Source: an uncultured Caproiciproducens sp. (lineage in GTDB: Bacteria; Bacillota; Clostridia; Oscillospirales; Acutalibacteraceae). Taken from it: 64,000 bases of DNA. How positions within the stretch are numbered: position 1 is the stretch's first letter; every line of letters begins with the position of its first letter. Positions 6,641-61,972 of this stretch are shown in pieces. The stretch lies in assembly GCA_963664915.1 (NCBI GenBank), contig OY761810.1, forward strand, positions 446,661 through 510,660, written 5' to 3'. The notes below the pieces were generated by a model. It was given only the letters and a program-made list of their open reading frames with translations, searched no databases and was not told the DNA's origin. The position numbers were made by a program, and so were the translations under genes.

Positions 6641-7384
6641 TTACCACCATTTAATCAAATCTGTAACTTGATTTCTCAAGTCTATGAAATCAGGAGAGGT
6701 GATATCCCGGGGACGAGGCATCGGATTATCCAGCACCTTTTTCACCTTAGTCGGTTTATTGGTTAAAATCATAATCCTTTCACCCAAATAAACGGCTTCT
6801 TCGATGTTATGTGTTATAAAAAAGATGGTTGTTTTTGTTTTTTGCCAGAGTTTAACCAACTCATCTTCAAGTTTAAAACGCAGTTCAATATCCAATTGAC
6901 CATATGGTTCATCCATCAGCAGTAATTCCGGCTTTGTCGCAAATGCTCGGGCAATTACAACTCGCTGCAACATACTGGAAGAAAGCTGGGAAGGATAATA
7001 TTTACGGAAAGGTGTAAGGCCTACAATATCCAGTACCTCTTCCACACTTTCTCTTTTTTCTTTTTCAGGCACTTTTTTAATATCTAAACCAAAGCTTACG
7101 TTTTGTTCAACATTCAGCCAGGGCATTGTCGAATTTTCTTGAAATATATATGCCAGATTTTGTTTTCTTAAATTAACCGACTCATTGTTTACAAGAATCT
7201 CACCGGATGTAATATCATACAGTTTCGTCAAACTATTCAGAAAAGTAGTTTTCCCACAGCCGGTTGGTCCGACCACACAAAGCAATTCACCCTGAGCAAT
7301 ATCGAAAGAAATATCATCCAGTACTAATAAATCTCCAAATTTCTTTGTCAAATGATTTACCCGCACTTTAGGATTGTTCTCCAT
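6641..7384 (-). CDS. ABC transporter ATP-binding protein (NitT/TauT family), copy 2
   Basis: Walker A GPTGCGKTT, signature LSSSMLQR, Walker B LLLMDEP. Length and C-terminus are typical of SsuB/TauB-like ATPases. Confidence 0.9.
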   Translation of the reverse strand: MENNPKVRVNHLTKKFGDLLVLDDISFDIAQGELLCVVGPTGCGKTTFLNSLTKLYDITSGEILVNNESVNLRKQNLAYIFQENSTMPWLNVEQNVSFGLDIKKVPEKEKRESVEEVLDIVGLTPFRKYYPSQLSSSMLQRVVIARAFATKPELLLMDEPYGQLDIELRFKLEDELVKLWQKTKTTIFFITHNIEEAVYLGERIMILTNKPTKVKKVLDNPMPRPRDITSPDFIDLRNQVTDLIKWW

Positions 7385-7398
7385 TTTGATTACCTCCT

Positions 7399-8172
7399 TT
7401 ATAGCGTTTTATCCACCGCCCCGGTAATCTCCATACGAAGCCGGAGAAACTCGGGATCTACGTAATTTCTTGGTCTTGGAAGATCGATGTTATATTCAGC
7501 TTTCACCTGTGTTGGACAATTCGCCAGTACAACGATACGGTCAGCAAGGTAAACTGCTTCTTCAATATTATTTGTTACAAATACTACTGTGCGCTTTTCT
7601 TGTTCCCAGATGCGTTCCAGTTCCTTTTGCATCAGGTAGCGGGTCTGGGCGTCCAAAGCACCAAAAGGTTCGTCCATTAACATGACAATCGGATTATTGG
7701 CATAAGCACGGGCGATACCAACTCTTTGCTTCATACCGCCGGACAGCTGAACCGGGAAAGACTTTTCATAGCCTTGAAGCCCGACCATATCAATATAATG
7801 TTGAGCTGTGATTTGACGTTCTTCCTTTTTCACCCCTCGTACCTTAGGGCCATATTCAACATTTCCCATTACTGTGAGCCATGGAAAAAGGGAGATAGTC
7901 TGGTAAACTACTCCGCGTTCCGGTCCAGGCTCAAGCACTTTTTTTCCATTTACTGTCACAGTGCCTTCACTAGAGGACTCCAGTCCGGCGATCATATTTA
8001 GAATTGTAGTCTTTCCACATTGACCCGGCCCAAAAAGAACTAGAAATTCATTTTCTTTAACTTCTAAATCAATATTCTTAACGACCTCAAAATCTTTATT
8101 CCCTGACTGAAAGGTCTTTTTCACGCCTTTGCATTCAATCATATTGTTTATTCGCTCTTGTTCCATCTGCAT
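7399..8172 (-). CDS. ABC transporter ATP-binding protein (NitT/TauT family), copy 1
   Basis: Walker A GPGQCGKTT, signature LSGGMKQR, Walker B MLMDEP. GAGGA Shine-Dalgarno upstream of the ATG at 8172. Overlaps the upstream permease gene by 25 nt. Confidence 0.9.
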   Translation of the reverse strand: MQMEQERINNMIECKGVKKTFQSGNKDFEVVKNIDLEVKENEFLVLFGPGQCGKTTILNMIAGLESSSEGTVTVNGKKVLEPGPERGVVYQTISLFPWLTVMGNVEYGPKVRGVKKEERQITAQHYIDMVGLQGYEKSFPVQLSGGMKQRVGIARAYANNPIVMLMDEPFGALDAQTRYLMQKELERIWEQEKRTVVFVTNNIEEAVYLADRIVVLANCPTQVKAEYNIDLPRPRNYVDPEFLRLRMEITGAVDKTL

Positions 8173-8933
8173 AATTTTTCCTCAACTCCTCGCATAATAG
8201 TCGCAAGAATAAATCCTACGATACCAATCGCCAAAATCCCCACTAAAGTCTGGTTCATATCATTTGTCTGCTGTGCGCTGACAATAACCCAACCGACACC
8301 TTCCGTGGAACGTACCATCTCAGCTGCTACGACAGTGGCCCAGCTGGTGGAAATTGCCACTTGCAGTCCTGCAAAAATAGAGGTCATTGATCCTGGGAGC
8401 ACAACGGTAAGCAAAGTTTGCGTTCTGTTGGCCCCTAACATCCTAGATGCTCCAACCAAAACCGGGTCAACCGATTTTGAGCCTTCGTATGCGTTGAGGG
8501 TAATGTTGCTGAATGCTGAGAGGAATATTAAAAAGTATTTTGTCATTTCCCCTAAACCGAACCATACAATAGCTAACGGAATCCATGCAATTGGGGGGAT
8601 CGGCCGGATGATATCATAAAGCGGCTTGAAAATTGCTTCTATTTTTGGGCTCCATCCCATCAGAACGCCTAAGGTGATTCCAACTACAGCCGCCACCACA
8701 TAGGCAATCATTACACGGGATAAACTCCATCCAACATGTTGTATAATGTTACTTGTGCCGATAGGTGTGTAAAAAGATTGAATAAAACTGCTGATAACCG
8801 TAATAGGCCCAGGCATCAACTGCCCCAAAGAAGTAGCAATAACAGCCCACTGCCATAGCATCAGGAATATACCAATAGAAATAACTGCGGCAAAAACTTT
8901 TTTAGTGGATTCTTTGTTATTTGATTTAGTCAT
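8148..8933 (-). CDS. ABC transporter permease (BPD_transp_1; SsuC/TauC-like)
   Basis: 261 aa, about 6 TM segments, EAA-like loop (GASRMLGANRTQTLLTVVLP). Confidence 0.9.
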   Translation of the reverse strand: MTKSNNKESTKKVFAAVISIGIFLMLWQWAVIATSLGQLMPGPITVISSFIQSFYTPIGTSNIIQHVGWSLSRVMIAYVVAAVVGITLGVLMGWSPKIEAIFKPLYDIIRPIPPIAWIPLAIVWFGLGEMTKYFLIFLSAFSNITLNAYEGSKSVDPVLVGASRMLGANRTQTLLTVVLPGSMTSIFAGLQVAISTSWATVVAAEMVRSTEGVGWVIVSAQQTNDMNQTLVGILAIGIVGFILATIMRGVEEKLCRWNKSE

Positions 8934-9748
8934 TTGTTACCGGCCCTCCCTTTTACAACCACACGCTCCAATAAAGAAAGCAAATACGTTAGGAATGCTC
9001 CAAGAGCACCAATCGCAATCATGCCTACAATGATAACATCAGTACGATAAATTCCGCGGCATTGCTGAATCATGAACCCAAGGCCGCTGTCGGATGCGAT
9101 CATTTCTGCTGCTACGAGCGCCATCCAAGAAGCACCTAAGGCAACACGAGCACCCGTCATTATCATTGGCAGAGAAGTTGGAATAGCCACTCGAGTCAAC
9201 AACTGAAAATCCGAAGCTCCAAATGTCTGCCCAACCCACAAATGCACTTGCTTCGTCTGGCGGATTCCCGAGTAAGAATTCACTACGCAGGCGACAAAGG
9301 CTGAAAGAAAGATTACCATTGCCTTCGACATCATACCGATTCCAAAGAGCGTAATCATTACTGTAATCCACGCCAAGCCAGGTACCGGTCGCAGTAAATC
9401 GAACAACGGCCTTACAAACATATCTACTTTTTTATACCAAGCCATTAAGATGCCTAAGGGGATACCAATCACAAGTCCGAGGGCATAACCGGAAAGAGCC
9501 ACCTGTAGACTAGCTCCGATATTTTCAATAAGGGTTGAGCCATCCGGTGCCGGATCATAAAGTTTAACAAAAAATGTTTGTAAAACCTTTACAGGACTGG
9601 GCATCGCTATTGTGGAAACCAAATGAAATCCATCAGTAACCAGCCACCAGATAACTAAAACAGTACCTACCGAAAGTACTGAAAGCCAAGCGTAATTTGA
9701 TTTCTTTACGCGTTTCAATATGTTATTCCCCCTACCTATTAGGATCAT
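8930..9748 (-). CDS. ABC transporter permease (BPD_transp_1; SsuC/TauC-like), second distinct copy
   Basis: 272 aa, EAA-like loop (GQTFGASDFQLLTRVAIP). 4-nt overlap with the downstream permease gene. Confidence 0.9.
   Translation of the reverse strand: MILIGRGNNILKRVKKSNYAWLSVLSVGTVLVIWWLVTDGFHLVSTIAMPSPVKVLQTFFVKLYDPAPDGSTLIENIGASLQVALSGYALGLVIGIPLGILMAWYKKVDMFVRPLFDLLRPVPGLAWITVMITLFGIGMMSKAMVIFLSAFVACVVNSYSGIRQTKQVHLWVGQTFGASDFQLLTRVAIPTSLPMIMTGARVALGASWMALVAAEMIASDSGLGFMIQQCRGIYRTDVIIVGMIAIGALGAFLTYLLSLLERVVVKGRAGNK

Positions 9749-16281: not shown

Positions 16282-16303
<22 letters not shown>
15590..16303 (+). pseudogene. remnant of a large serine recombinase (catalytic N-terminal domain missing, frameshifted)
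   Basis: The 15725..16303 ORF has a recombinase / zinc-ribbon-like segment (IPSIIDRELWEYV..CGNKYRTRTCSVKNVNADQLETFV) and a coiled-coil tail. In another frame, interrupted by stops, the upstream 15590-15724 reads GKNSIPSIFSNERYISVHTWNKRK (recombinase-domain W..IL.N..Y motif). No resolvase domain is present. Confidence 0.6.
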
Positions 16304-16358
<55 letters not shown>

Positions 16359-48344: not shown

Positions 48345-50054
48345 ATGACGCAAGTATTCTCTTCTGTTGATACGATCTGGGTACTACTCGGCGCGGCCCT
48401 GGTGTTCTTTATGCAGGCGGGCTTCGCAATGGTTGAAACCGGTTTTACAAGGGCAAAAAATGCTGGCAACATTATCATGAAAAACCTGATGGATTTCTGT
48501 ATCGGAACACCCATTTTCTGGATTTTCGGATTTGGTCTGATGTTTTCAGGAACAGCACCTTTGATCGGCGGTATCGACTTTTTCACAAGAGGCGATTACG
48601 CCGCGAACATGGGATTGACTGTTCCCACAACGGCCTACATTATTTTCCAAACCGTTTTCTGCGCGACAGCCGCGACAATTGTCTCGGGTGCCATGGCGGA
48701 AAGGACAAAATTTATTTCCTACTGCATTTACAGCGCATGTATCAGCGCATTTGTCTACCCTGTTTCCGGTCACTGGATTTGGGGCGGCGGCTGGCTGGCG
48801 CAGATTGGATTCCACGATTTTGCTGGTTCCACCGCCGTTCATATGGTTGGCGGCCTTGCAGCATTAATCGGCGCAAAAATGCTTGGCCCCCGTATTGGCA
48901 AATATGACAAGAACGGGAACCCAAAAGCGATTCCCGGGCACAGCCTGACCCTTGGTGCGCTTGGCGTATTCATTCTCTGGTTCTGCTGGTTCGGATTCAA
49001 CGGATGCTCTACAATCTCCATGACCGGAGATGATATGCTTGCATCCGCAAGCAAAATCTTTGTCAACACAAATCTTGCCGCTGCTGTGGCAACTGTGACT
49101 GTTATGATTATCACATGGTTTCGTTACAAAAAACCGGATGTTTCCATGACCTTGAACGGATCCCTCGCAGGCCTTGTTGCAATTACCGCGGGCTGCGATG
49201 CGGTTTCTCCGGTCGGCGCATTCTTCATTGGTTTGATTTCCGGGTTTATTGTCGTATTCGGCATTGAATTTGTTGATAAGAAATTAAAAATAGACGACCC
49301 GGTCGGCGCGGTCGGCGTACATTTTCTAAACGGAGCCGGCGGCACCATATTAACTGGATTTTTCGCGGTAGACGGCGGACTGCTTTACGGCGGCGGTTTC
49401 AAGTTCCTTGGCACACAAATCCTTGGTGTTCTGGCCGTGTGCGCATGGGTTACCGTTGCAATGCTGATTATCTTTACGGTAATCAAGAAAACCGTTGGCC
49501 TTCGTGTTGACCCGGAAGAAGAACTGATGGGTCTGGACATTAAGGAACATGGCATTGTAAGCGCATACGCAGATTTCCTGCCAATGGACGGCCACGCTTT
49601 GTTTACTGAGGCAGATTTCGTATCTGTTGAAGAAAGCGTACCCGTGTCACACTATCCCGAAGCACCGACTGTTTCTTCCTCCGTCAGCGGTAAAAAACTG
49701 ACGAAAGTTGTGATGATATTCAACAAGAGTAAATTTGAGGCAATGAAATCCGCAATGAACGAGATCGGCGTAACGGGAATGACCGTTACCAATGTTCTTG
49801 GCTGCGGAACTCAAAAGGGCCAGACAGAATATTATCGCGGTGTGAAGTTTGATGAGGTTACTCTGCTTCCAAAAATAAAGCTTGAGTTGGTAGTCAGTGC
49901 CGTCCCTGTTGAACTCGTTACCAGCACGGCCAAGAAGGTTTTGTACACCGGAAAAATCGGCGACGGAAAAATCTTTGTCTACGACGTTGAAAACGTGATT
50001 AAGGTCCGTACCGGTGAAGAAGGCTATGAAGCGTTGCAGGGTGATGCTGATTAA
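48345..50054 (+). CDS. amt: ammonium transporter fused to a C-terminal P-II (GlnK/GlnB) domain
   Basis: The N-terminal ~430 aa are Amt ([25 protein letters not shown]; [11 protein letters not shown]). The C-terminal ~112 aa align with P-II ([26 protein letters not shown]...[24 protein letters not shown]). Confidence 0.9.
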
Positions 50055-50092
50055 TTATTTAGAGTACAAGATCTTTACATATCTTCCTATAT

Positions 50093-50132
50093 AAAGCGGG
50101 CGGTCTGTCATCACTGGCAGGCCGCCCGCTTT
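50093..50132 (+). terminator. 18-bp hairpin after amt (probable terminator)
   Basis: aaagcgggcggtctgtca-tcac-tggcaggccgcccgcttt with two G:U pairs. It starts 39 nt after the amt stop. The T-tract is short. Confidence 0.55.
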
Positions 50133-50135
50133 ATG

Positions 50136-50245
50136 ATGCCACTTGACAGAAAGAGTAATTCATATAATAATGAGAGAATATATGGGAAGGCCGCACGCCG
50201 AGGATGAGTTCAAGCCAGGAGACCTGCCGTAAATAAGGTTCGTAA
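50136..50245 (+). promoter_or_regulatory. cobalamin-riboswitch-like leader (B12 box; only the 3' half is recognisable)
   Basis: Blocks in canonical order: GCCACT (50138), TGGGAAGGC (50183), GAGGATGAGT (50200), B12 box AGCCAGGAGACCTGCC (50213-50228), ATAAGG (50233). The usual GGGAA..GGTG.AA.TCC..CCCGC core was not convincingly found upstream. Confidence 0.4.
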
Positions 50246-50265
50246 ATTTAGTCGGAGGGATTAAA

Positions 50266-51723
50266 ATGACTGTAAAAAAAATAACGGCGGCGCTGTGTGC
50301 GCTTGCCTTCGTGATTTCAGCCGCGGTCGGTGCGTCGGCAGCCGACAGCGCGGACTGGCCCCAGTTTCTCGGTTCGCCGACGGCGTCCGGGCTGACCACT
50401 GCCAAAACGTCGGTCAACGCCGCGTCGGCTAATCAGATTTGGACGGTGAAGCACAGCATTACCAGCGAATACAACGGAGCAAAATATGAGAATAACGCCT
50501 GCGGAACTCCTATCGCTGTAGGCAGTTATCTTTATATGACAACTGCGGACGGTAAACTGCTGAAGCTCGACGCGGCGACCGGAAAAACCGCCGCATCCGC
50601 CGAGTGTTTGAACATTCCCCTGTATTTTTCCCAAATTGCCTTTGGCGACGGAAAAATTTACGTTCCGCAGCAAACGTTTGCCGGCGTTCAAATTTCCGCC
50701 TTTGACGCAGAGAATCTGACCCCCGTCTGGCAAAGCGACGCAATCGCTTATGGGGAATCGGCACAGCAGATCTCCTCCCCCATCACCTATTACGATCACC
50801 GCATTTATTTTGGAACCTATACGCAGGATGCGGCGACCTACGCCTACACTTCCGGCGTGTTTGTCTGCATGGACACTTCCACAGGCAAAACCGCGTGGCT
50901 GCATGAAAACAGCACTGCGGGTTATTACTGGAACGGCAGCGCCGTTACGGGCACAGCCGTCGCGGTCTCCGACACCGCCGGAACCATTACCGCCTATCGT
51001 CTGACGGACGGCGCCGTTGTCAGCACCGTTACCGCGGGCGGGCCGGTCAGTTCCACCCTTTGTATTGCACAGGGCAGACTGTACGCCTCCGTAAAATCCG
51101 GTTATATCTATTCGGCGAAAATGGATGCAGGCGGCATGATTTACGGCAGTACGGCGGTCAAATCCGCGGTACTTGGCAACAGCATTACCTCAAGCCCTGT
51201 CGTTTTCAACAACAGGCTTTACGTTGCTGGCGGCGGCTATAACGCAACGACGCCATTCTCCGTTTTAGATGCCGAAAGTCTAAAAACCATCTATCAGATC
51301 AGCGGCATCCAATCACAATCCTCCCCCCTCGTCTCCACCGCTTACGCGGCGGACAAAAACAAACAGCAGGTGTCTATTTACGTCACGAAATACGGCACAC
51401 TGGACGAGAATTACGCCTTTACGAAGGATTCCTCCAGTGTATATGTCATTAGCGACCACGCGGGACAGACAAAGCCTTCTTACGAAATCCTGTTTACGCC
51501 GCCGGTGCCGCAGTCTTCCTCGCAGAGCCTTGTGCCCTCAAAAGACGGCTCCCTGTTCTATTTTAACGACAGCGGCAGTTTATACGCCATTGCAAGAAAA
51601 GCGCCTCTCGCGTCCCCGGCGACCGGGGAAGAGCCTGTCGCAATGCCTATCGTCGTTGTGATGTTGAGCGCCGCCGTTGTTTTCGTCCTGCAAAGAAAGC
51701 CTGATTTTTCGGAGCTGCCATGA
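50266..51723 (+). CDS. secreted PQQ-like beta-propeller repeat protein with (S/P)PXTG-like sorting signal
   Basis: Signal peptide (AAVGASAADSADWPQF). Repeated PQQ/BamB-like blades (YLYMTTADGKLLKLDAATGK; VFVCMDTSTGKTAWL; GTITAYRLTDGAV; SLFYFNDSGSLYAI). The C-terminus has SPATGE, a hydrophobic stretch and QRK. Confidence 0.85.
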   Translation: MTVKKITAALCALAFVISAAVGASAADSADWPQFLGSPTASGLTTAKTSVNAASANQIWTVKHSITSEYNGAKYENNACGTPIAVGSYLYMTTADGKLLKLDAATGKTAASAECLNIPLYFSQIAFGDGKIYVPQQTFAGVQISAFDAENLTPVWQSDAIAYGESAQQISSPITYYDHRIYFGTYTQDAATYAYTSGVFVCMDTSTGKTAWLHENSTAGYYWNGSAVTGTAVAVSDTAGTITAYRLTDGAVVSTVTAGGPVSSTLCIAQGRLYASVKSGYIYSAKMDAGGMIYGSTAVKSAVLGNSITSSPVVFNNRLYVAGGGYNATTPFSVLDAESLKTIYQISGIQSQSSPLVSTAYAADKNKQQVSIYVTKYGTLDENYAFTKDSSSVYVISDHAGQTKPSYEILFTPPVPQSSSQSLVPSKDGSLFYFNDSGSLYAIARKAPLASPATGEEPVAMPIVVVMLSAAVVFVLQRKPDFSELP

Positions 51724-52391
51724 AATATAAAATCCTAACAATTCTGTGCGTACTCTGCGTCCTGTCCGGATGCAGAGTGGAACTTCCGCCTCAAAGTGCG
51801 GCCGGTCAGGCAACCTCAGCTGTAAACTCTCAGGAAGTTTCACAGGACGAAAGCGGCAGCGAGGCTTCCGCAATGGTTCCTTCCGTTCCGGAAAGCGCGG
51901 CTGTCTCTGCTTCAACTCCGGTTTCTCCCGCGCCCTCAAAGGCAAACACTTCCGGTCCTGCTGCTGCTTCAAAACCGGCTGCTTCAAAACCGTCCGCTTC
52001 GGGAACTGCGAAAGAACAAAGCTGTACCCTGTTAATCTCATGCGGTGATATTTTGAAGAGCAGGGACAAATTCAGCGCGGATCAGCTTTCCATAGTACCG
52101 GAGGACGGCGTGATCTACAGTGAAAAGACCATTGCCATAAAAAGCGGAGACACCGTCTTTGATGTGCTTCTGCGCGAAACAAAAGCAGACAAAATACAGA
52201 TGGAATTCGTTGCTTCTCCGGTTTATCAGACCAACTACATTAAGTCAATTGATAATATTTATGAAAAAGCTTTTGGCAGCACAAGCGGCTGGATGTACAC
52301 GGTAAACAGCAAACAGCCGCCCGTTGCCGCAAGCGGCTATAAGCTGAAAAACGGCGATAAAATTCAATGGCTGTACGTATGCGGCCAATAA
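51720..52391 (+). CDS. DUF4430-domain lipoprotein
   Basis: Lipobox VLSGC. Ser/Ala/Pro-rich tether with an AASKPAASKP repeat. The C-terminal domain has GSTSGWMYTVNSKQPPVAASGYKLKNGDKIQWLY, the DUF4430 hallmark. Confidence 0.85.
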   Translation: MKYKILTILCVLCVLSGCRVELPPQSAAGQATSAVNSQEVSQDESGSEASAMVPSVPESAAVSASTPVSPAPSKANTSGPAAASKPAASKPSASGTAKEQSCTLLISCGDILKSRDKFSADQLSIVPEDGVIYSEKTIAIKSGDTVFDVLLRETKADKIQMEFVASPVYQTNYIKSIDNIYEKAFGSTSGWMYTVNSKQPPVAASGYKLKNGDKIQWLYVCGQ

Positions 52392-52414
52392 ACGGCATTG
52401 GGAAGAAAACTTTG

Positions 52415-53293
52415 ATGAAAAACCATTTCGGCAGGCTCCATCCTGCTATTCTTTTTATTTATTTCGCGTCTGTTATCCTGTTCTCCATGTTCTTCATGCA
52501 TCCGGTTTTTCTGGCGATTTCGTTTTTGAGCGGCTTCGTCTGTTCTCTTATGCTCAATTCAAAAAAAGCCTTGGGGTTTAATCTGAAATTTCTTTTGCCG
52601 CTCATTCTGGTAATGGCGATAATCAACCCTCTGCTCAACCACGCCGGAGCAACCATCCTGCTATATGTAAATGACAACCCCATTACACTCGAATCGTGTA
52701 TATACGGGATTGCGGCGGCGTGTATGTTCGCAAGCGTGCTTCTGTGGTTCTCGTGCAGCAACGCCGTGATGACCTCCGATAAAATCACCTATCTTTTCGG
52801 ACGCGCGGCTCCCTCGTTCTCGTTGATGTTTTCCATGGTTCTGCGTTTTGTGCCTCGCTTTAAAGCGCAGATTCTAGTCATCAGCAATGCGCAGAAGGGA
52901 ATCGGAAAAGGCGCGGACACCGGCAGCATTGCCGTGCGTGCAAAAAACGGGATCAAGATTCTTTCGATGTTGACCACGTGGGCGCTTGAAAACGGGATTA
53001 CCACCGCGGATTCTATGCGGGCACGCGGCTACGGTCTTGCCGGACGCACGAATTTCAGCCGGTATAAATTCGCCAAAACGGATAAAATAACTTTAATATT
53101 ACTCTTTGTATTATTGGCAGTCGTTATTTACGGCTTTATAGCGGGAGAAAACAATATCAGATACTTTCCGTCGTTTTCTGTCAAGCCAGTAACGCCGTTC
53201 AGTGCTTTGATTTACGCGGCATATTTTCTGCTCTGTTCGTTTCCCCTGCTGATTCATGCAGTATTCGAGGTAAAATACCATGGCAATCATTGA
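52415..53293 (+). CDS. ECF transporter transmembrane (T) component (CbiQ/EcfT family)
   Basis: Polytopic protein with a conserved C-terminal Arg-containing helix region (TADSMRARGYG). ATG 52415 was chosen over the track start. Confidence 0.85.
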   Translation: MKNHFGRLHPAILFIYFASVILFSMFFMHPVFLAISFLSGFVCSLMLNSKKALGFNLKFLLPLILVMAIINPLLNHAGATILLYVNDNPITLESCIYGIAAACMFASVLLWFSCSNAVMTSDKITYLFGRAAPSFSLMFSMVLRFVPRFKAQILVISNAQKGIGKGADTGSIAVRAKNGIKILSMLTTWALENGITTADSMRARGYGLAGRTNFSRYKFAKTDKITLILLFVLLAVVIYGFIAGENNIRYFPSFSVKPVTPFSALIYAAYFLLCSFPLLIHAVFEVKYHGNH

Positions 53294-54914
53294 AATAAAA
53301 CAGTTCAGCTTCACCTATCCGGATGAACAGGAGCCCGCGCTGAAAAACGTCAGTCTAAAGGTCGGCGAAGGTGAATTTATTGTGCCCTGCGGGCTGTCTG
53401 GCTGCGGCAAAACAACGCTGCTGCGCCAGTTGAAACCCGCATTGACCCCGCACGGCGAAAGCAGCGGAGGCATCCTTTTTTGCGGCAAACCGCTGAAGGA
53501 GCTTGATTTGCGTACCCAGACGGCAGGCATCGGTTTTGTCATGCAGTCGCCGGAAGAGCAGATTGTAACGGATAAGGTATGGCATGAGCTCGCGTTCGGA
53601 CTGGAAAGCCTCGGCCTTGATAATCAGACCATCCGGCTGCGCACTGCGGAAATGGCCAGTTTCTTCGGGATTGAAGCATGGTTCGAAAAGGACGTTTCTT
53701 CCCTTTCCGGCGGGCAGAAACAGCTTTTAAATCTGGCTTCCATTATGGCTATGCAGCCAAAAGTGCTGCTGCTGGACGAGCCCACCTCGCAGCTTGACCC
53801 AATTGCGGCGGCGGATTTTCTTGCCGCTGTGCGAAAAATAAATGCTGAACTGGGCGTTGCCGTCATTCTGACCGAACAAAGGCTGCAGGAAGTATTCCCC
53901 ATGGCCGACCGGGTGGTTGTGCTGGACCGCGGTCGAATCTTCGCAGATGCACCTCCGCGTGAAGCCGGCGCGGTACTGTTTCAAAGCAACCACCCCATGG
54001 CGGCGGCTCTGCCTGCACCCATGAAAATTTGCGGTGCCGTAAAAAACAGCCTCCCCTGTCCGATGACCGTACGGGAAGGCAGGCAGTGGCTGGAAGAACT
54101 GTTCCGGAATCAAACAATACGGTTCAACAGCATAGAAGAACCGCATACCAAAACAGAGGGCAGCGATGCAGTCAGTTTAAAGGAATGCTGGTTTTCCTAT
54201 GATAAAAATGAACCCGACGTGATAAAAGATCTTTCCCTGCACATTCCAAGGGGCGGTTTATACTGCATCGTAGGCGGGAACGGAACCGGAAAAAGCACCG
54301 CGCTCGGCATCATGGCTGGAATCTATAAACCGTATCGCGGCAAGGTGAAGGTCAGCGGGCGCACCGCATTACTTCCGCAGAACCCGCAGGCGCTTTTTTT
54401 AAAAAACACGGTTGAAGGTGATCTGGCCGAAGCACTGGACGAAAAGCTTTCCGCTGATGAAAAGGAACAAAAAATACAAGATGTCGCCGAGCTTGTGGAA
54501 ATCGGTAATCTGCTCCACCGGCATCCGTATGATCTGAGCGGCGGCGAACAGCAGCGGGCGGCTCTTGGGAAGGTGCTGCTGACGCAGCCTGAAATTCTTC
54601 TGCTGGATGAACCGACCAAAGGACTGGATTCTTTTTTTAAAATAAGATTTGCGGATATTCTGAATAAGCTGATCAAATCCGGAGTCACCGTTGTGATGGT
54701 ATCGCATGATATCGAATTCTGCGCCGAATTTTCCGACAGCTGTGCCCTGTTTTTTAACGGAACCGTCGTCGCTGACGGCAGCGCACATACTTTCTTCTCC
54801 GGCAACAGCTTTTACACCACCGCCGCCAGCCGAATGACGCGGGGCTTGTTCCAAAATGCTGTGAGAAACGGAGATGTGATCGCGCTGTGCAACAAAAATC
54901 AAGACGCAGACTGA
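53280..54914 (+). CDS. ECF transporter fused double ATPase (A-A')
   Basis: Two complete ABC cassettes (GLSGCGKTT..LSGGQKQ..LLLDEP; GGNGTGKST..LSGGEQQ..LLLDEP). Confidence 0.9.
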   Translation: MAIIEIKQFSFTYPDEQEPALKNVSLKVGEGEFIVPCGLSGCGKTTLLRQLKPALTPHGESSGGILFCGKPLKELDLRTQTAGIGFVMQSPEEQIVTDKVWHELAFGLESLGLDNQTIRLRTAEMASFFGIEAWFEKDVSSLSGGQKQLLNLASIMAMQPKVLLLDEPTSQLDPIAAADFLAAVRKINAELGVAVILTEQRLQEVFPMADRVVVLDRGRIFADAPPREAGAVLFQSNHPMAAALPAPMKICGAVKNSLPCPMTVREGRQWLEELFRNQTIRFNSIEEPHTKTEGSDAVSLKECWFSYDKNEPDVIKDLSLHIPRGGLYCIVGGNGTGKSTALGIMAGIYKPYRGKVKVSGRTALLPQNPQALFLKNTVEGDLAEALDEKLSADEKEQKIQDVAELVEIGNLLHRHPYDLSGGEQQRAALGKVLLTQPEILLLDEPTKGLDSFFKIRFADILNKLIKSGVTVVMVSHDIEFCAEFSDSCALFFNGTVVADGSAHTFFSGNSFYTTAASRMTRGLFQNAVRNGDVIALCNKNQDAD

Positions 54915-55603
54915 CGAAGAGTGAATGGCTGACCTGTGTATCGGCATTGGTTCTGGCTCCCGCAGCTGTTCTTTGGGGCGTGTACGGGCCGGGCGACCGG
55001 AAATATTATTTCATCAGCTTTATCATCATTCTATGCGCCATGCTTCCATTTTTTCTGGTGTTTGAACGCCGACGCCCGCAGGCGCGGGAGTTGGTCACAC
55101 TGTCGGTGCTGTGCGCCGTTGCGGTAGCCGGACGCGCGGCGTTCTATATGCTGCCGCAATTCAAGCCTGTCGCGGCGATTGTCATCATTACCGGCGTATC
55201 ATTGGGTGCGCAGTCCGGTTTTCTTGTGGGCGCTATGAGCGCCTTTGTTTCGAATTTCTTTTTTGGACAGGGACCGAACACACCGTGGCAGATGTTCGCG
55301 TTCGGCATTCTCGGATTTCTGGCAGGTATTCTGTATGAACATGGCCCGCTGAGCAGCAGCCGGTTTTCGCTTTGCATTTTCGGCGGATCAGCAACCCTTG
55401 TTCTGTATGGCGGGATTGTAAACGCCGGCACGCTGCTGGTCAGCGGCTTGCCCGTGACTCTTCCCGCATATTTTGCGGTCTGTCTCGGCTCGCTGCCCTT
55501 TGACCTGATTCATGCGGCGGCAAGCGTATTCTTTCTGTTTTTTATTTCTAAGCCGATGATTGAAAAAATCGAAAGAATCAAGAAGAAATACGGATTAATG
55601 TGA
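54887..55603 (+). CDS. ECF transporter substrate-specific (S) component (CbrT-like position)
   Basis: 238 aa, about 6 TM segments and small. It is the last gene of a dedicated ECF operon. Substrate assignment is by context only. Confidence 0.65.
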   Translation: MQQKSRRRLTKSEWLTCVSALVLAPAAVLWGVYGPGDRKYYFISFIIILCAMLPFFLVFERRRPQARELVTLSVLCAVAVAGRAAFYMLPQFKPVAAIVIITGVSLGAQSGFLVGAMSAFVSNFFFGQGPNTPWQMFAFGILGFLAGILYEHGPLSSSRFSLCIFGGSATLVLYGGIVNAGTLLVSGLPVTLPAYFAVCLGSLPFDLIHAAASVFFLFFISKPMIEKIERIKKKYGLM

Positions 55604-55830
55604 GATTTTTGTCTAATAATATAATCTGTTGACTATTTTATACAGATAGTATAATTTATTTTATCGTGCAGGGAACTTGCGGTGACCTGTATCTGCGTTT
55701 CGCTTCGCTTTTTCAGATGGGAGTAATTGAGTCTGCATTGGTAGGTTGGCTTATTTTCATTACTCGTGTTCAATGGATTTTCGTGCTATAATCTTTTCAA
55801 TATAATACAGTTTGAGGGGAAGCGGTAATT

Positions 55831-56238
55831 TTGTATTATCAGCAGGACTGGGTTATGCGTCAAATTGAAATGATGGTTCAATTTATAACAATGACGGTAT
55901 TGCACAAGGATTCAATCCACTACGAGATTATTGATGAGACCAATCTGTCTAAAACAGATTCTTTGTATAAAGAATTGTGCGGTTTGATTGCAAAACATCG
56001 GATTTGTGAAGCTGAAAATCTATTATATGAAAACCTGAATGAAGGTAACACAGAGTATCTGGAAATGGCTCTTGATTTTTATCAGACGATCAATCAGATG
56101 ACTGACGATGAATTAGAGAAATGTAATTTTTCCAGAGAGGAAATCAACGACGGTATCAATGAAATGCTACGCAGGTTTCATATTGCTATTGACATAGCAG
56201 GGGATGGAAGTGAATCCCATACGAAATATGATAAGTAA
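55831..56238 (+). CDS. hypothetical protein
   Basis: 135-aa ORF (TTG start; alternative ATG 55855). Followed by a strong terminator. No motif recognised. Confidence 0.5.
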   Translation: MYYQQDWVMRQIEMMVQFITMTVLHKDSIHYEIIDETNLSKTDSLYKELCGLIAKHRICEAENLLYENLNEGNTEYLEMALDFYQTINQMTDDELEKCNFSREEINDGINEMLRRFHIAIDIAGDGSESHTKYDK

Positions 56239-61628: not shown

Positions 61629-61629
61629 G

Positions 61630-61972
61630 GTGCGACCAGGCCTGTAAGCCGAGTTCTGTCGTGAACAGCCATCTATCTTGGCCGGATGTTGCCATCACGG
61701 CTCAGTGCCACCTTCTCGGGACGCGCCGGGCCGACGCATATATCCCTCTGCGGTGTTGCTCCGAATAGGGTTTGCAGAGCCGCGCGGTCTCCCACGCGCT
61801 GGTGAGCTCTTACCTCGCCTTTCCATCCTTACCGTTTCCGGCGGTATATCTCTGTTGCACTTTCCCTGGGGTTGCCCCCGGCGGCCGTTAGCCGTTATTC
61901 TGCCCTGTGGAGCTCGGACTTTCCTCGGGCACGCCCTTTCGAGCTGTGTCCGCAGCTGTTCAGCCTGCTCGC
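61630..61972 (-). ncRNA. rnpB: RNase P RNA
   Basis: The reverse complement contains the universally conserved blocks GAGGAAAGTCCGAGCTCCACAG, GGTAAGAGCTCACC and ACAGAACTCGGCTTA. Terminal P1 pairing is GCGAGCAGGC / GCCTGGTCGC. Ends are approximate to within 10 nt. Confidence 0.88.

Follow-up and report, generated by a model that had tools for sequence, protein, structure and literature searches.

A cobalamin riboswitch remnant lies in front of a complete operon for predicted corrinoid capture and import in an uncultured Caproiciproducens sp.

The window analysed here is the whole stretch of 64,000 nucleotides (nt) from an uncultured Caproiciproducens sp. (contig OY761810.1), and the subject is an operon at 50266-55603 of this window together with its leader. 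The operon consists of five co-directional, overlapping open reading frames (ORFs), all full-length relative to their orthologs, which encode a beta-propeller protein, a DUF4430 lipoprotein and the T, fused A-A' and S components of an energy-coupling factor (ECF) transporter. A preliminary description of this DNA had recognized a cobalamin (vitamin B12) box in the leader and proposed that the operon is a B12-regulated system for corrinoid capture and uptake. The 211-nt gap between the upstream amt-PII gene (48345-50054) and the ATG of the first operon gene (50266) holds the whole leader, in which a 33-nt motif, a GC-rich hairpin, a promoter, GGGAAGGCC, GAGGATGA, the B12 box, CCGTAAA and a Shine-Dalgarno (SD) hairpin follow each other in this order. 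The features of the leader are as follows.

50093-50132, + strand: GC-rich, terminator-like hairpin downstream of the amt-PII gene and outside the riboswitch (from the sequence; conserved in relatives, upstream of the promoter)

50143-50171, + strand: sigma-70-type promoter of the operon, TTGACA-17 nt-AATAAT (11 of 12 consensus positions)

50180-50181, + strand: deletion junction at which ~93 nt of the relatives' sequence are gone (alignment with L021 and L001)

50184-50237, + strand: cobalamin riboswitch remnant, the 3' third of the aptamer (RF00174, 19.6 bits; alignment)

50247-50265, + strand: SD-presenting hairpin with the stem TTTAGTC/GATTAAA and the loop GGAGG at 50254-50258 (minimum free energy and centroid structures)

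The promoter had already been pointed out in the preliminary description, and its -35 and -10 boxes are conserved in 16 aligned relatives, where they stand directly upstream of the riboswitches. Transcription would start at ~50178. The GC-rich hairpin is followed only by TTTAT, a T-run short enough to leave it unflagged by the intrinsic terminator scan, and in the part of the leader that follows the promoter the same scan found no terminator. The GGAGG loop of the SD hairpin is located 7 nt upstream of the propeller ATG. The inner 5 bp of this hairpin are paired in all 14 distinct sequences among the relatives' leaders, and one compensatory double change, from A-U to C-G or U-G, is seen in L008 and L011.

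At gathering thresholds, an Rfam scan of the whole window returned no cobalamin match, and only an RNase P RNA and one tRNA were found. When we scanned 49950-50400 (451 nt) at sensitive settings, the cobalamin family RF00174 was aligned to the leader with 19.6 bits (E=0.0058), which is below its gathering threshold of 31.5 bits, and RF00174 was the sole family of the cobalamin clan among the matches. The alignment covers the 3' half of the element with high posterior probability. It spans 49985-50245, and its 5' half is forced into the 3' end of amt-PII and the unrelated upstream hairpin, with many non-canonical pairs. The same scan gave matches to Chloroflexi-1 (20.4 vs 80 bits), MIR8643 and P31, which lie on the upstream hairpin or the leader and were dismissed as noise; those of Chloroflexi-1 and MIR8643 fall on the 50093-50132 hairpin, far below threshold.

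The relatives used for comparison came from two sources. When one genome per species was scanned with a protein pattern, 18 orthologous loci were found in Caproiciproducens and related Oscillospiraceae, with propellers 46-85% identical, and four metagenome loci (L021-L024) were added by looking up P0002, the propeller ortholog closest to that of the window (83% identical). The operon is retained in most of the orthologous loci. The leaders of 17 relatives were aligned and run from the same promoter to the same SD hairpin, and in 15 of the 17 a full aptamer lies between these two, with TTTACGG, AGGGAATGCGGT...CCGC, AGCAGCCCCCGCT, ACTGTA, GGYCACTGG, GGGAAGGCC, GGATGA, the B12 box and CCGTAAA in this order. 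The covariance model, named in the preliminary description as the check on its riboswitch, thus stays below the gathering score in the window, yet the corresponding sites upstream in 14 related loci (L001, L002, L003, L004, L005, L009, L010, L012, L013, L014, L015, L016, L021 and L022) score 85.7-130.5 bits, so that the expected riboswitch does stand in front of homologous operons. RF00174 was also matched in a more distant operon (L025, 67.7 bits) and at a standalone propeller homolog (L027, 96.1 bits). The riboswitch of L003 (6716-6979) carries in its P4 loop an insertion of ~50 nt with the inverted repeat TTATACGAATTCCTGT...ACAGGAATTCGTATAG and still scores 95 bits.

When the window was aligned with L021, which shows 83% protein identity to it and has the same amt-PII gene upstream, the leaders differed by one single gap of 93 columns between 50180 and 50181, and the alignment with L001 had the same outcome. 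The sequence lost in the window (ACCGAATTTACGG...GGCCACTGGTTC) holds the P1 5' strand TTTACGG, AGGGAATGCGGT...CCGC, the L5 region AGCAGCCCCCGCT, ACTGTA and GGCCACTGG; the leader has thereby lost the real GCCACTGG block and P2-P5 with their C-rich L5 loop. The blocks retained are GGGAAGGCC from 50184, with GGGAAGGC at 50184-50191, then GAGGATGA at 50200-50207, the B12 box AGCCAGGAGACCTGCC at 50213-50228 and the P1 3' strand CCGTAAA at 50227-50233, and they align column for column with the true cobalamin riboswitches of relatives. Since the relatives hold a full aptamer where the window has a single 93-nt gap, the region 50184-50237 is the remnant of a riboswitch, homologous to true cobalamin riboswitches. 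The B12 box is therefore present where it had been placed, and two of the blocks described around it, GGGAAGGC and GAGGATGA, are genuine parts of the element. Another of them, GCCACT at 50139-50144, is part of the flank just upstream of the -35 box (CCACTTGACA); L001 and L021 have this flank as well as the real GGCCACTGG ~130 nt downstream. The caution, expressed at the same time, that the switch might be truncated or non-functional turned out to be right. The placement of the junction is uncertain by ~3 nt, where the window reads TAT and the relatives read GCC just before GGGAAGG. A deletion between two GGGAA direct repeats was also considered and is unsupported, because TTTACGG before the first GGGAA is gone as well and TAT replaces GCC.

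Compared with cobalamin riboswitches of the translational type in RF00174, in which L5 and L13 kiss, the remnant shares the B12 box, GGGAAGGC, GAUGA and the P1 3' strand in canonical order. It occupies the position orthologous to that of the relatives' matches, and the SD hairpin follows it as it follows the intact ones. In contrast to these, the window leader is without ~93 nt, the 5' two-thirds of the aptamer, and no P1 can be formed. Missing from the RF00174 core are the P1 helix, GGGAA..GGUG of P3/P4, the C-rich L5 loop, ACUGU and GCCACUG. We thus regard the element as a riboswitch pseudogene, which should be unable to form a ligand pocket.

It could be argued that the leader is an atypical, minimal one that still responds to B12, either through the 3' half alone or together with a read-through transcript from amt-PII. 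The B12 box and its flanking blocks have stayed 94% conserved despite the loss of the 5' half, RF00174 can be forced over 49985-50245 at E=0.0058, and the poor T-run of the upstream hairpin makes some read-through conceivable. We consider such a leader highly improbable, because that score is sub-threshold and its 5' portion is made of coding sequence and a separately conserved hairpin with many non-canonical pairs, and because this supposed 5' half is situated upstream of the promoter. Furthermore, all core elements of the ligand pocket (the P1 5' strand, GGGAA...GGUG of P3/P4, L5 and ACUGU) are absent, while the relatives show the places that they formerly had, and the leader folds no more stably than shuffled sequence (z = +0.99), with the SD hairpin alone being formed.

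The deletion looks recent, because the remnant (50185-50237) is identical to both L021 and L001 at 50 of 53 positions (94%), compared with ~65% at neutral sites. As neutral yardsticks we used the third codon positions of the adjacent gene, which are 65% identical, the promoter spacer (11/17) and the sequence after the -10 box (6/13). At a neutral identity of 0.65, the probability of at least 50 identical positions in 53 is 5e-7. A recent deletion is favoured here over a remnant that is still constrained. A change as fresh as this might instead be an assembly or sequencing error, or a mutation acquired during laboratory cultivation: the near-perfect remnant fits a very recent event, possibly one in culture, the allele is unique, the 16 relatives with such a leader are all intact, and the junction was not found in the metagenome collection. 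This is unlikely, in our view. The contig on which the propeller protein is recorded is 3.1 Mb long, which speaks for an assembly of high quality, and there is no repeat at the junction to provoke a collapse. Complete loss of the riboswitch has occurred naturally in the clade (L008 and L011), which makes a natural deletion plausible, and even a laboratory-acquired mutation would be a real allele with the same consequences.

The leader is followed by these five genes.

50266-51723, + strand: PQQ/BamB-like beta-propeller, 485 amino acids, predicted to be cell-wall-anchored (Pfam PQQ_2, E=9e-16; AF2 model; Foldseek)

51720-52391, + strand: DUF4430 lipoprotein, 223 amino acids (Pfam PF14478; AF2 model; Foldseek; lipobox)

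52367-53293, + strand: EcfT, ECF transmembrane T component, CbrV-like (PDB 5d3m_D, E=1.6e-8)

53280-54914, + strand: fused A-A' ECF ATPase, CbrU-like (two Pfam ABC_tran stretches, E=1.4e-50)

54887-55603, + strand: ECF S component, CbrT homolog, putative corrinoid-specific subunit (PDB 6fnp_A; Pfam ECF_trnsprt, E=4e-9)

Pfam and PDB matches agree with the five-gene make-up proposed earlier, and the signal peptide, the SPATG motif with its hydrophobic segment and QRK tail, and the lipobox LSGC are also present as described and conserved in orthologs. In the propeller gene, identities at the three codon positions are 0.90, 0.91 and 0.65, indicating that the gene is under purifying selection. The AF2 model of the propeller, with a predicted local distance difference test (pLDDT) value of 79, has 34 strands and fits eight blades, and Foldseek ranked BamB, YxaL, tetrathionate hydrolase and PQQ dehydrogenases highest among its structural matches. 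The protein begins with a signal peptide and ends in LASPATGEEPVAMPIVVVMLSAAVVFVLQRKPDFSELP, which is composed of the SPATG sorting signal, a hydrophobic segment and the QRK tail. The sorting signal is conserved as SP[KAP]TG, with P451, T453 and G454 invariant in 15 orthologs.

The DUF4430 protein has at its N terminus (MKYKILTILCVLCVLSGC) the lipobox LSGC with Cys18, conserved in close orthologs as L[SAT]GC. This is followed by a Ser/Ala/Pro-rich linker of ~80 residues and a C-terminal, transcobalamin-like SLBB domain at residues ~100-223. PF14478 matches residues 143-219 at 68 bits (cutoff 23.8; E=1e-18), and the domain was modelled by AF2 with a pLDDT of ~97. Foldseek gave 19 matches at E<1e-3, of which 17 belong to intrinsic factor, transcobalamin or haptocorrin and two to chains of 3u7z, a DUF4430 structure. 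These fold matches include 2pmv (1.5e-6), 8ixu (3.5e-6), 4kki and 3u7z, as well as 5no0, the isolated human transcobalamin beta domain, with a target-based template-modelling score (TMt) of 0.77 and a root-mean-square deviation of 2.8 Å. Judged from its predicted structure, the domain has the beta-grasp fold of the transcobalamin/intrinsic-factor beta domain. When the PDB was searched by sequence alone, neither the single protein nor a profile of 36 sequences gave a transcobalamin match, and the kinship is thus at the level of the fold only. Pfam scans of the two extracellular proteins detected PQQ-type families and DUF4430 only, and no BtuH-type domain.

Residues 21-250 of the T component were aligned to 5d3m_D, and its Ala-Arg-Gly motif reads MRARGY. 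With the ATG as annotated, its gene shares 25 nt with the DUF4430 gene, and the true start may be the internal ATG of Met17. Pfam CbiQ was not matched by this protein at E<=0.01; orthologs carry precomputed CbiQ matches. In NCBIfam, the fused ATPase reaches 231 bits for cbiO TIGR01166 (cutoff 211.8) and 308.7 bits for ECF_ATPase_1, and no specific family was found for the DUF4430, T or S proteins. The S component matches 6fnp_A, the CbrT subunit of Lactobacillus delbrueckii ECF-CbrT, with E=8.3e-13, residues 61-236 being aligned to residues 4-177 of 182, and the PDB search gave no other solved S component at E<=1.

It is well supported that the operon is a corrinoid capture and import system. 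The cobalamin riboswitches in front of the orthologous operons of relatives support its membership of the B12 regulon, a placement drawn from comparative sequence analysis, and the homology of its S component to CbrT, the transcobalamin-beta fold and the anchoring signals fit the extracellular front end for corrinoid uptake that the preliminary description had envisaged. The idea as such is not new. Burroughs et al. 2007 (PMC1796856) defined a transcobalamin-like SLBB clade with signal peptides, Gram-positive anchors, paralogous pairs and CbiO/CbiQ operons, reported a fusion of SLBB and propeller in C. tetani, and predicted the scavenging of B12 or its precursors. Corrinoid scavenging by such surface systems had thus been predicted in 2007, and the link to the riboswitch and its decay are outside that work. 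ECF-CbrT carries cobalamin and cobinamide, and hemin is no competitor (PMC5997447); the same paper credits Rodionov et al. 2009 with the prediction that CbrT is the S component for B12. The literature search found nothing under the name cbrTUV and only marginal papers on DUF4430 with cobalamin.

More distant loci show related arrangements. In a high-GC genome (L025, 64% GC), a DUF4430-propeller fusion, a second DUF4430 protein, T, A-A' and S proteins are encoded, which are 27-42% identical to those of the window. The standalone homolog L027 (3144-5456) is an SLH-anchored propeller of 652 amino acids, 31% identical, which is the sole gene behind its riboswitch, with no DUF4430 or ECF gene nearby. 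At L029 (2754-8893) a Flg_new_2-DUF4430-SLH protein of 883 amino acids, an alpha/alpha-toroid (SQHop_cyclase_C)-SLH protein of 501 amino acids, a DUF4430 lipoprotein, CbiQ and an ABC ATPase are encoded, and no RF00174 match was found at the gathering threshold in the 9.6 kb fetched. The toroid protein fills the slot that the propeller has in the window operon. Gene order and the fusions suggest that the propeller partners DUF4430 in binding, in the slot taken by the toroid in sister operons.

The transported substrate might instead be heme or another tetrapyrrole, as for lsa1836-1840 of Lactobacillus sakei, an operon of S, A-A', T, transcobalamin-beta-like and transcobalamin-alpha-like proteins that has been experimentally linked to heme uptake (10.1101/864751), and the B12 switch has been lost in this genome, L008 and L011. 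Such a substrate appears very unlikely here, since cobalamin riboswitches stand before the orthologous operons, the distant homologous operon and the standalone propeller homolog. Moreover, the closest solved relative of the S component is CbrT, for which hemin is no competitor, and the DUF4430 fold matches B12-binding beta domains.

Taking the leader and the operon together, we suggest, with a probability of roughly three in four, that the leader is the stump of a cobalamin riboswitch, left by a deletion of ~93 nt, in front of an intact corrinoid capture and import operon whose expression is blind to B12. The ancestor would have had a promoter, a full aptamer, an SD-presenting hairpin and the operon, as relatives still do. 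In this lineage, the deletion would have taken the 5' two-thirds of the aptamer and left the promoter, the 3' third and the SD hairpin. In structures of cobalamin riboswitches, B12 stabilises the kissing of L5 with the L13 hairpin that carries the ribosome-binding site. The intact relatives have ~15-35 nt between P1 and the SD hairpin and no terminator, and their control is probably translational, through a B12-stabilised kissing of L5 (CCCCC) with the GGAGG loop. The SD hairpin would be the L13-type partner of L5 in these relatives, and five Watson-Crick pairs with one C-A mismatch are possible between L5 (AGCCCCC) and the CGGAGG loop. With L5 lost, the ribosome site would stay free and the operon would be on at any B12 level. 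Because L5 and the P1 5' strand are gone and only the SD hairpin forms, expression is expected to be constitutive and B12-blind. Regulation of the operon through the B12 box in the usual sense, as the preliminary description had it, is accordingly not upheld for this genome, in which the leader is a deletion remnant. At the cell surface, the sortase-anchored propeller and the DUF4430 protein, tethered by lipid on its long flexible linker, would capture the corrinoid, and the dedicated ECF importer (T, fused A-A' and the CbrT-like S) would move it across the membrane.

Several points weigh against this interpretation. First, the conservation of the remnant could mean that some function was retained instead of a recent deletion. 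Second, the deletion allele was found in no other sequence when metagenome contigs were searched with the exact junction and with a gapped promoter-to-GGGAAGG pattern, in a collection that may lack the species. Third, the C-A mismatch is central in the pairing of L5 with the loop (CCCCCG vs CGGAGG), and both partners are invariant, so that covariation is uninformative. Fourth, a remnant of this kind might conceivably keep the leader in an off state or make the mRNA less stable. Fifth, L008 and L011 have propeller and DUF4430 genes and neither riboswitch nor ECF genes, indicating that the surface proteins have no strict need of this ECF transporter. Finally, corrinoid binding by the propeller and the DUF4430 protein is a prediction, and the homologous L. 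sakei operon, with an alpha-toroid and no propeller, is the one linked by experiment to heme uptake (10.1101/864751).

The loci L008 and L011 represent a further state of decay in the clade. In both, the promoter runs straight into the SD hairpin, no RF00174 match and no ECF genes are found, and the propeller and DUF4430 genes are kept (6900-9100 in each). L011 is C. galactitolivorans BS-1 and L008 is a related metagenome-assembled genome. C. galactitolivorans YR-4 (L014), labelled as the same species as BS-1, has the full riboswitch and operon set. The absence of the riboswitch in L008 and L011 and its truncation in the window indicate that riboswitch loss recurs in the clade. At L012 (6813-9124), a cobalamin riboswitch of 93 bits precedes the propeller and DUF4430 genes only, the next ORFs being on the opposite strand. 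This arrangement indicates that the surface proteins are B12-regulated in their own right, and the L012 pair may serve a transporter encoded elsewhere. A more far-reaching scenario is that the propeller binds corrinoid, replaces the toroid, sandwiches B12 with DUF4430 and hands it to CbrT, and that the 93-nt deletion is an adaptive, always-on change, one step in a recurrent Caproiciproducens decay from an intact switch through a truncated one to no switch and no ECF; taken as a whole, this is a tentative and rather doubtful proposal.

BtuG of Bacteroides is a seven-bladed propeller lipoprotein partnered with BtuB, while the window propeller has eight blades and a BamB/YxaL-like fold, and the top 50 Foldseek matches of its model do not include BtuG. 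With the BtuG/BtuH systems (PMC8941943, PMC10404256), the window operon shares the concept of riboswitch-controlled loci with surface corrinoid capture ahead of a transporter, and one beta-propeller. The DUF4430 domain has a different fold from the BtuH domain, and BtuH is without a DUF4430 assignment (PMC8941943). Moreover, the window proteins anchor to the Gram-positive wall and membrane with no BtuB, whereas those of Bacteroides are placed in the outer membrane beside BtuB. The likeness to BtuG/BtuH drawn in the preliminary description therefore holds as a functional analogy and not as homology, given the absence of BtuG from the top 50 folds and of any BtuH domain.

The transporter is closest to ECF-CbrT of L. 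delbrueckii (6FNP) and to the CbrT systems with B12 riboswitches that Rodionov et al. 2009 predicted. With ECF-CbrT it shares a CbrT-homologous S component, an EcfT-homologous T component and two ABC ATPase domains. The window module is a dedicated one (group I, with T, fused A-A' and S together), whereas the L. delbrueckii module is shared among S components. Two genes for extracellular proteins precede the transporter in the window, and the N terminus of the S component is ~55 residues longer. The surface proteins resemble the SLBB proteins described in PMC1796856 in the anchored DUF4430, the propeller partner, the Gram-positive anchor motifs and the CbiO/CbiQ-type linkage, but the propeller and the SLBB domain are separate in the window and their anchors differ (sortase vs lipid). 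With L. sakei Lsa1836-1840 (10.1101/864751), the operon shares a five-part logic of S, A-A', T, a transcobalamin-beta-like secreted protein and a second extracellular partner. In L. sakei this partner is an alpha/alpha-toroid (transcobalamin-alpha-like), as in L029, and not a propeller, and no riboswitch is mentioned in the preprint.

These observations are relevant to Gram-positive corrinoid uptake beyond the ECF-CbrT core. The clade offers a natural experiment, in which the same operon is found with an intact switch (L021, L001 and YR-4), with a truncated one (this genome) and with no switch and no ECF (BS-1). Comparison of the three states could show what the switch contributes, whether the surface proteins work without the dedicated importer, and how riboswitches die. 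For annotation, the locus cautions against assuming B12 regulation wherever a perfect B12 box is present.

Upstream of the leader, the amt-PII ORF (48345-50054, 569 amino acids) encodes an ammonium transporter (Ammonium_transp) fused to a P-II (GlnB-like) domain. The window, L003, L016 and L021-L023 are the only loci with this gene between glnA3 and the B12 operon; in the other relatives glnA3 is directly upstream, and the presence or absence of the gene is an indel polymorphism. The 33-nt motif GTACAAGATCTTTACATATCTTCCTATATAAAG at 50064-50096, just before the 50093-50132 hairpin, occurs once in the window. It is nearly invariant in relatives whose neutral sites are ~65% identical, and always has the nitrogen gene (glnA3 or amt-PII) on one side and the promoter of the B12 operon on the other. 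The quasi-palindrome GTACAAGATCTTTAC within this motif has what we take to be a loose likeness to the GlnR/TnrA-type box TGTNAN7TNACA, with 2 mismatches.

Downstream of the operon, the next ORF (55831-56238) encodes a DUF6483 protein, and no terminator-like site was found in the interval that separates it from the S-component gene (55603-55831). The tRNA detected in the whole-window scan lies at 16285-16358 on the - strand. The RNase P RNA, at 61629-61971 on the - strand, is of bacterial class A (254.5 bits), and is found similarly far downstream of the operon in L002, L008, L010 and L011, indicating conserved synteny.

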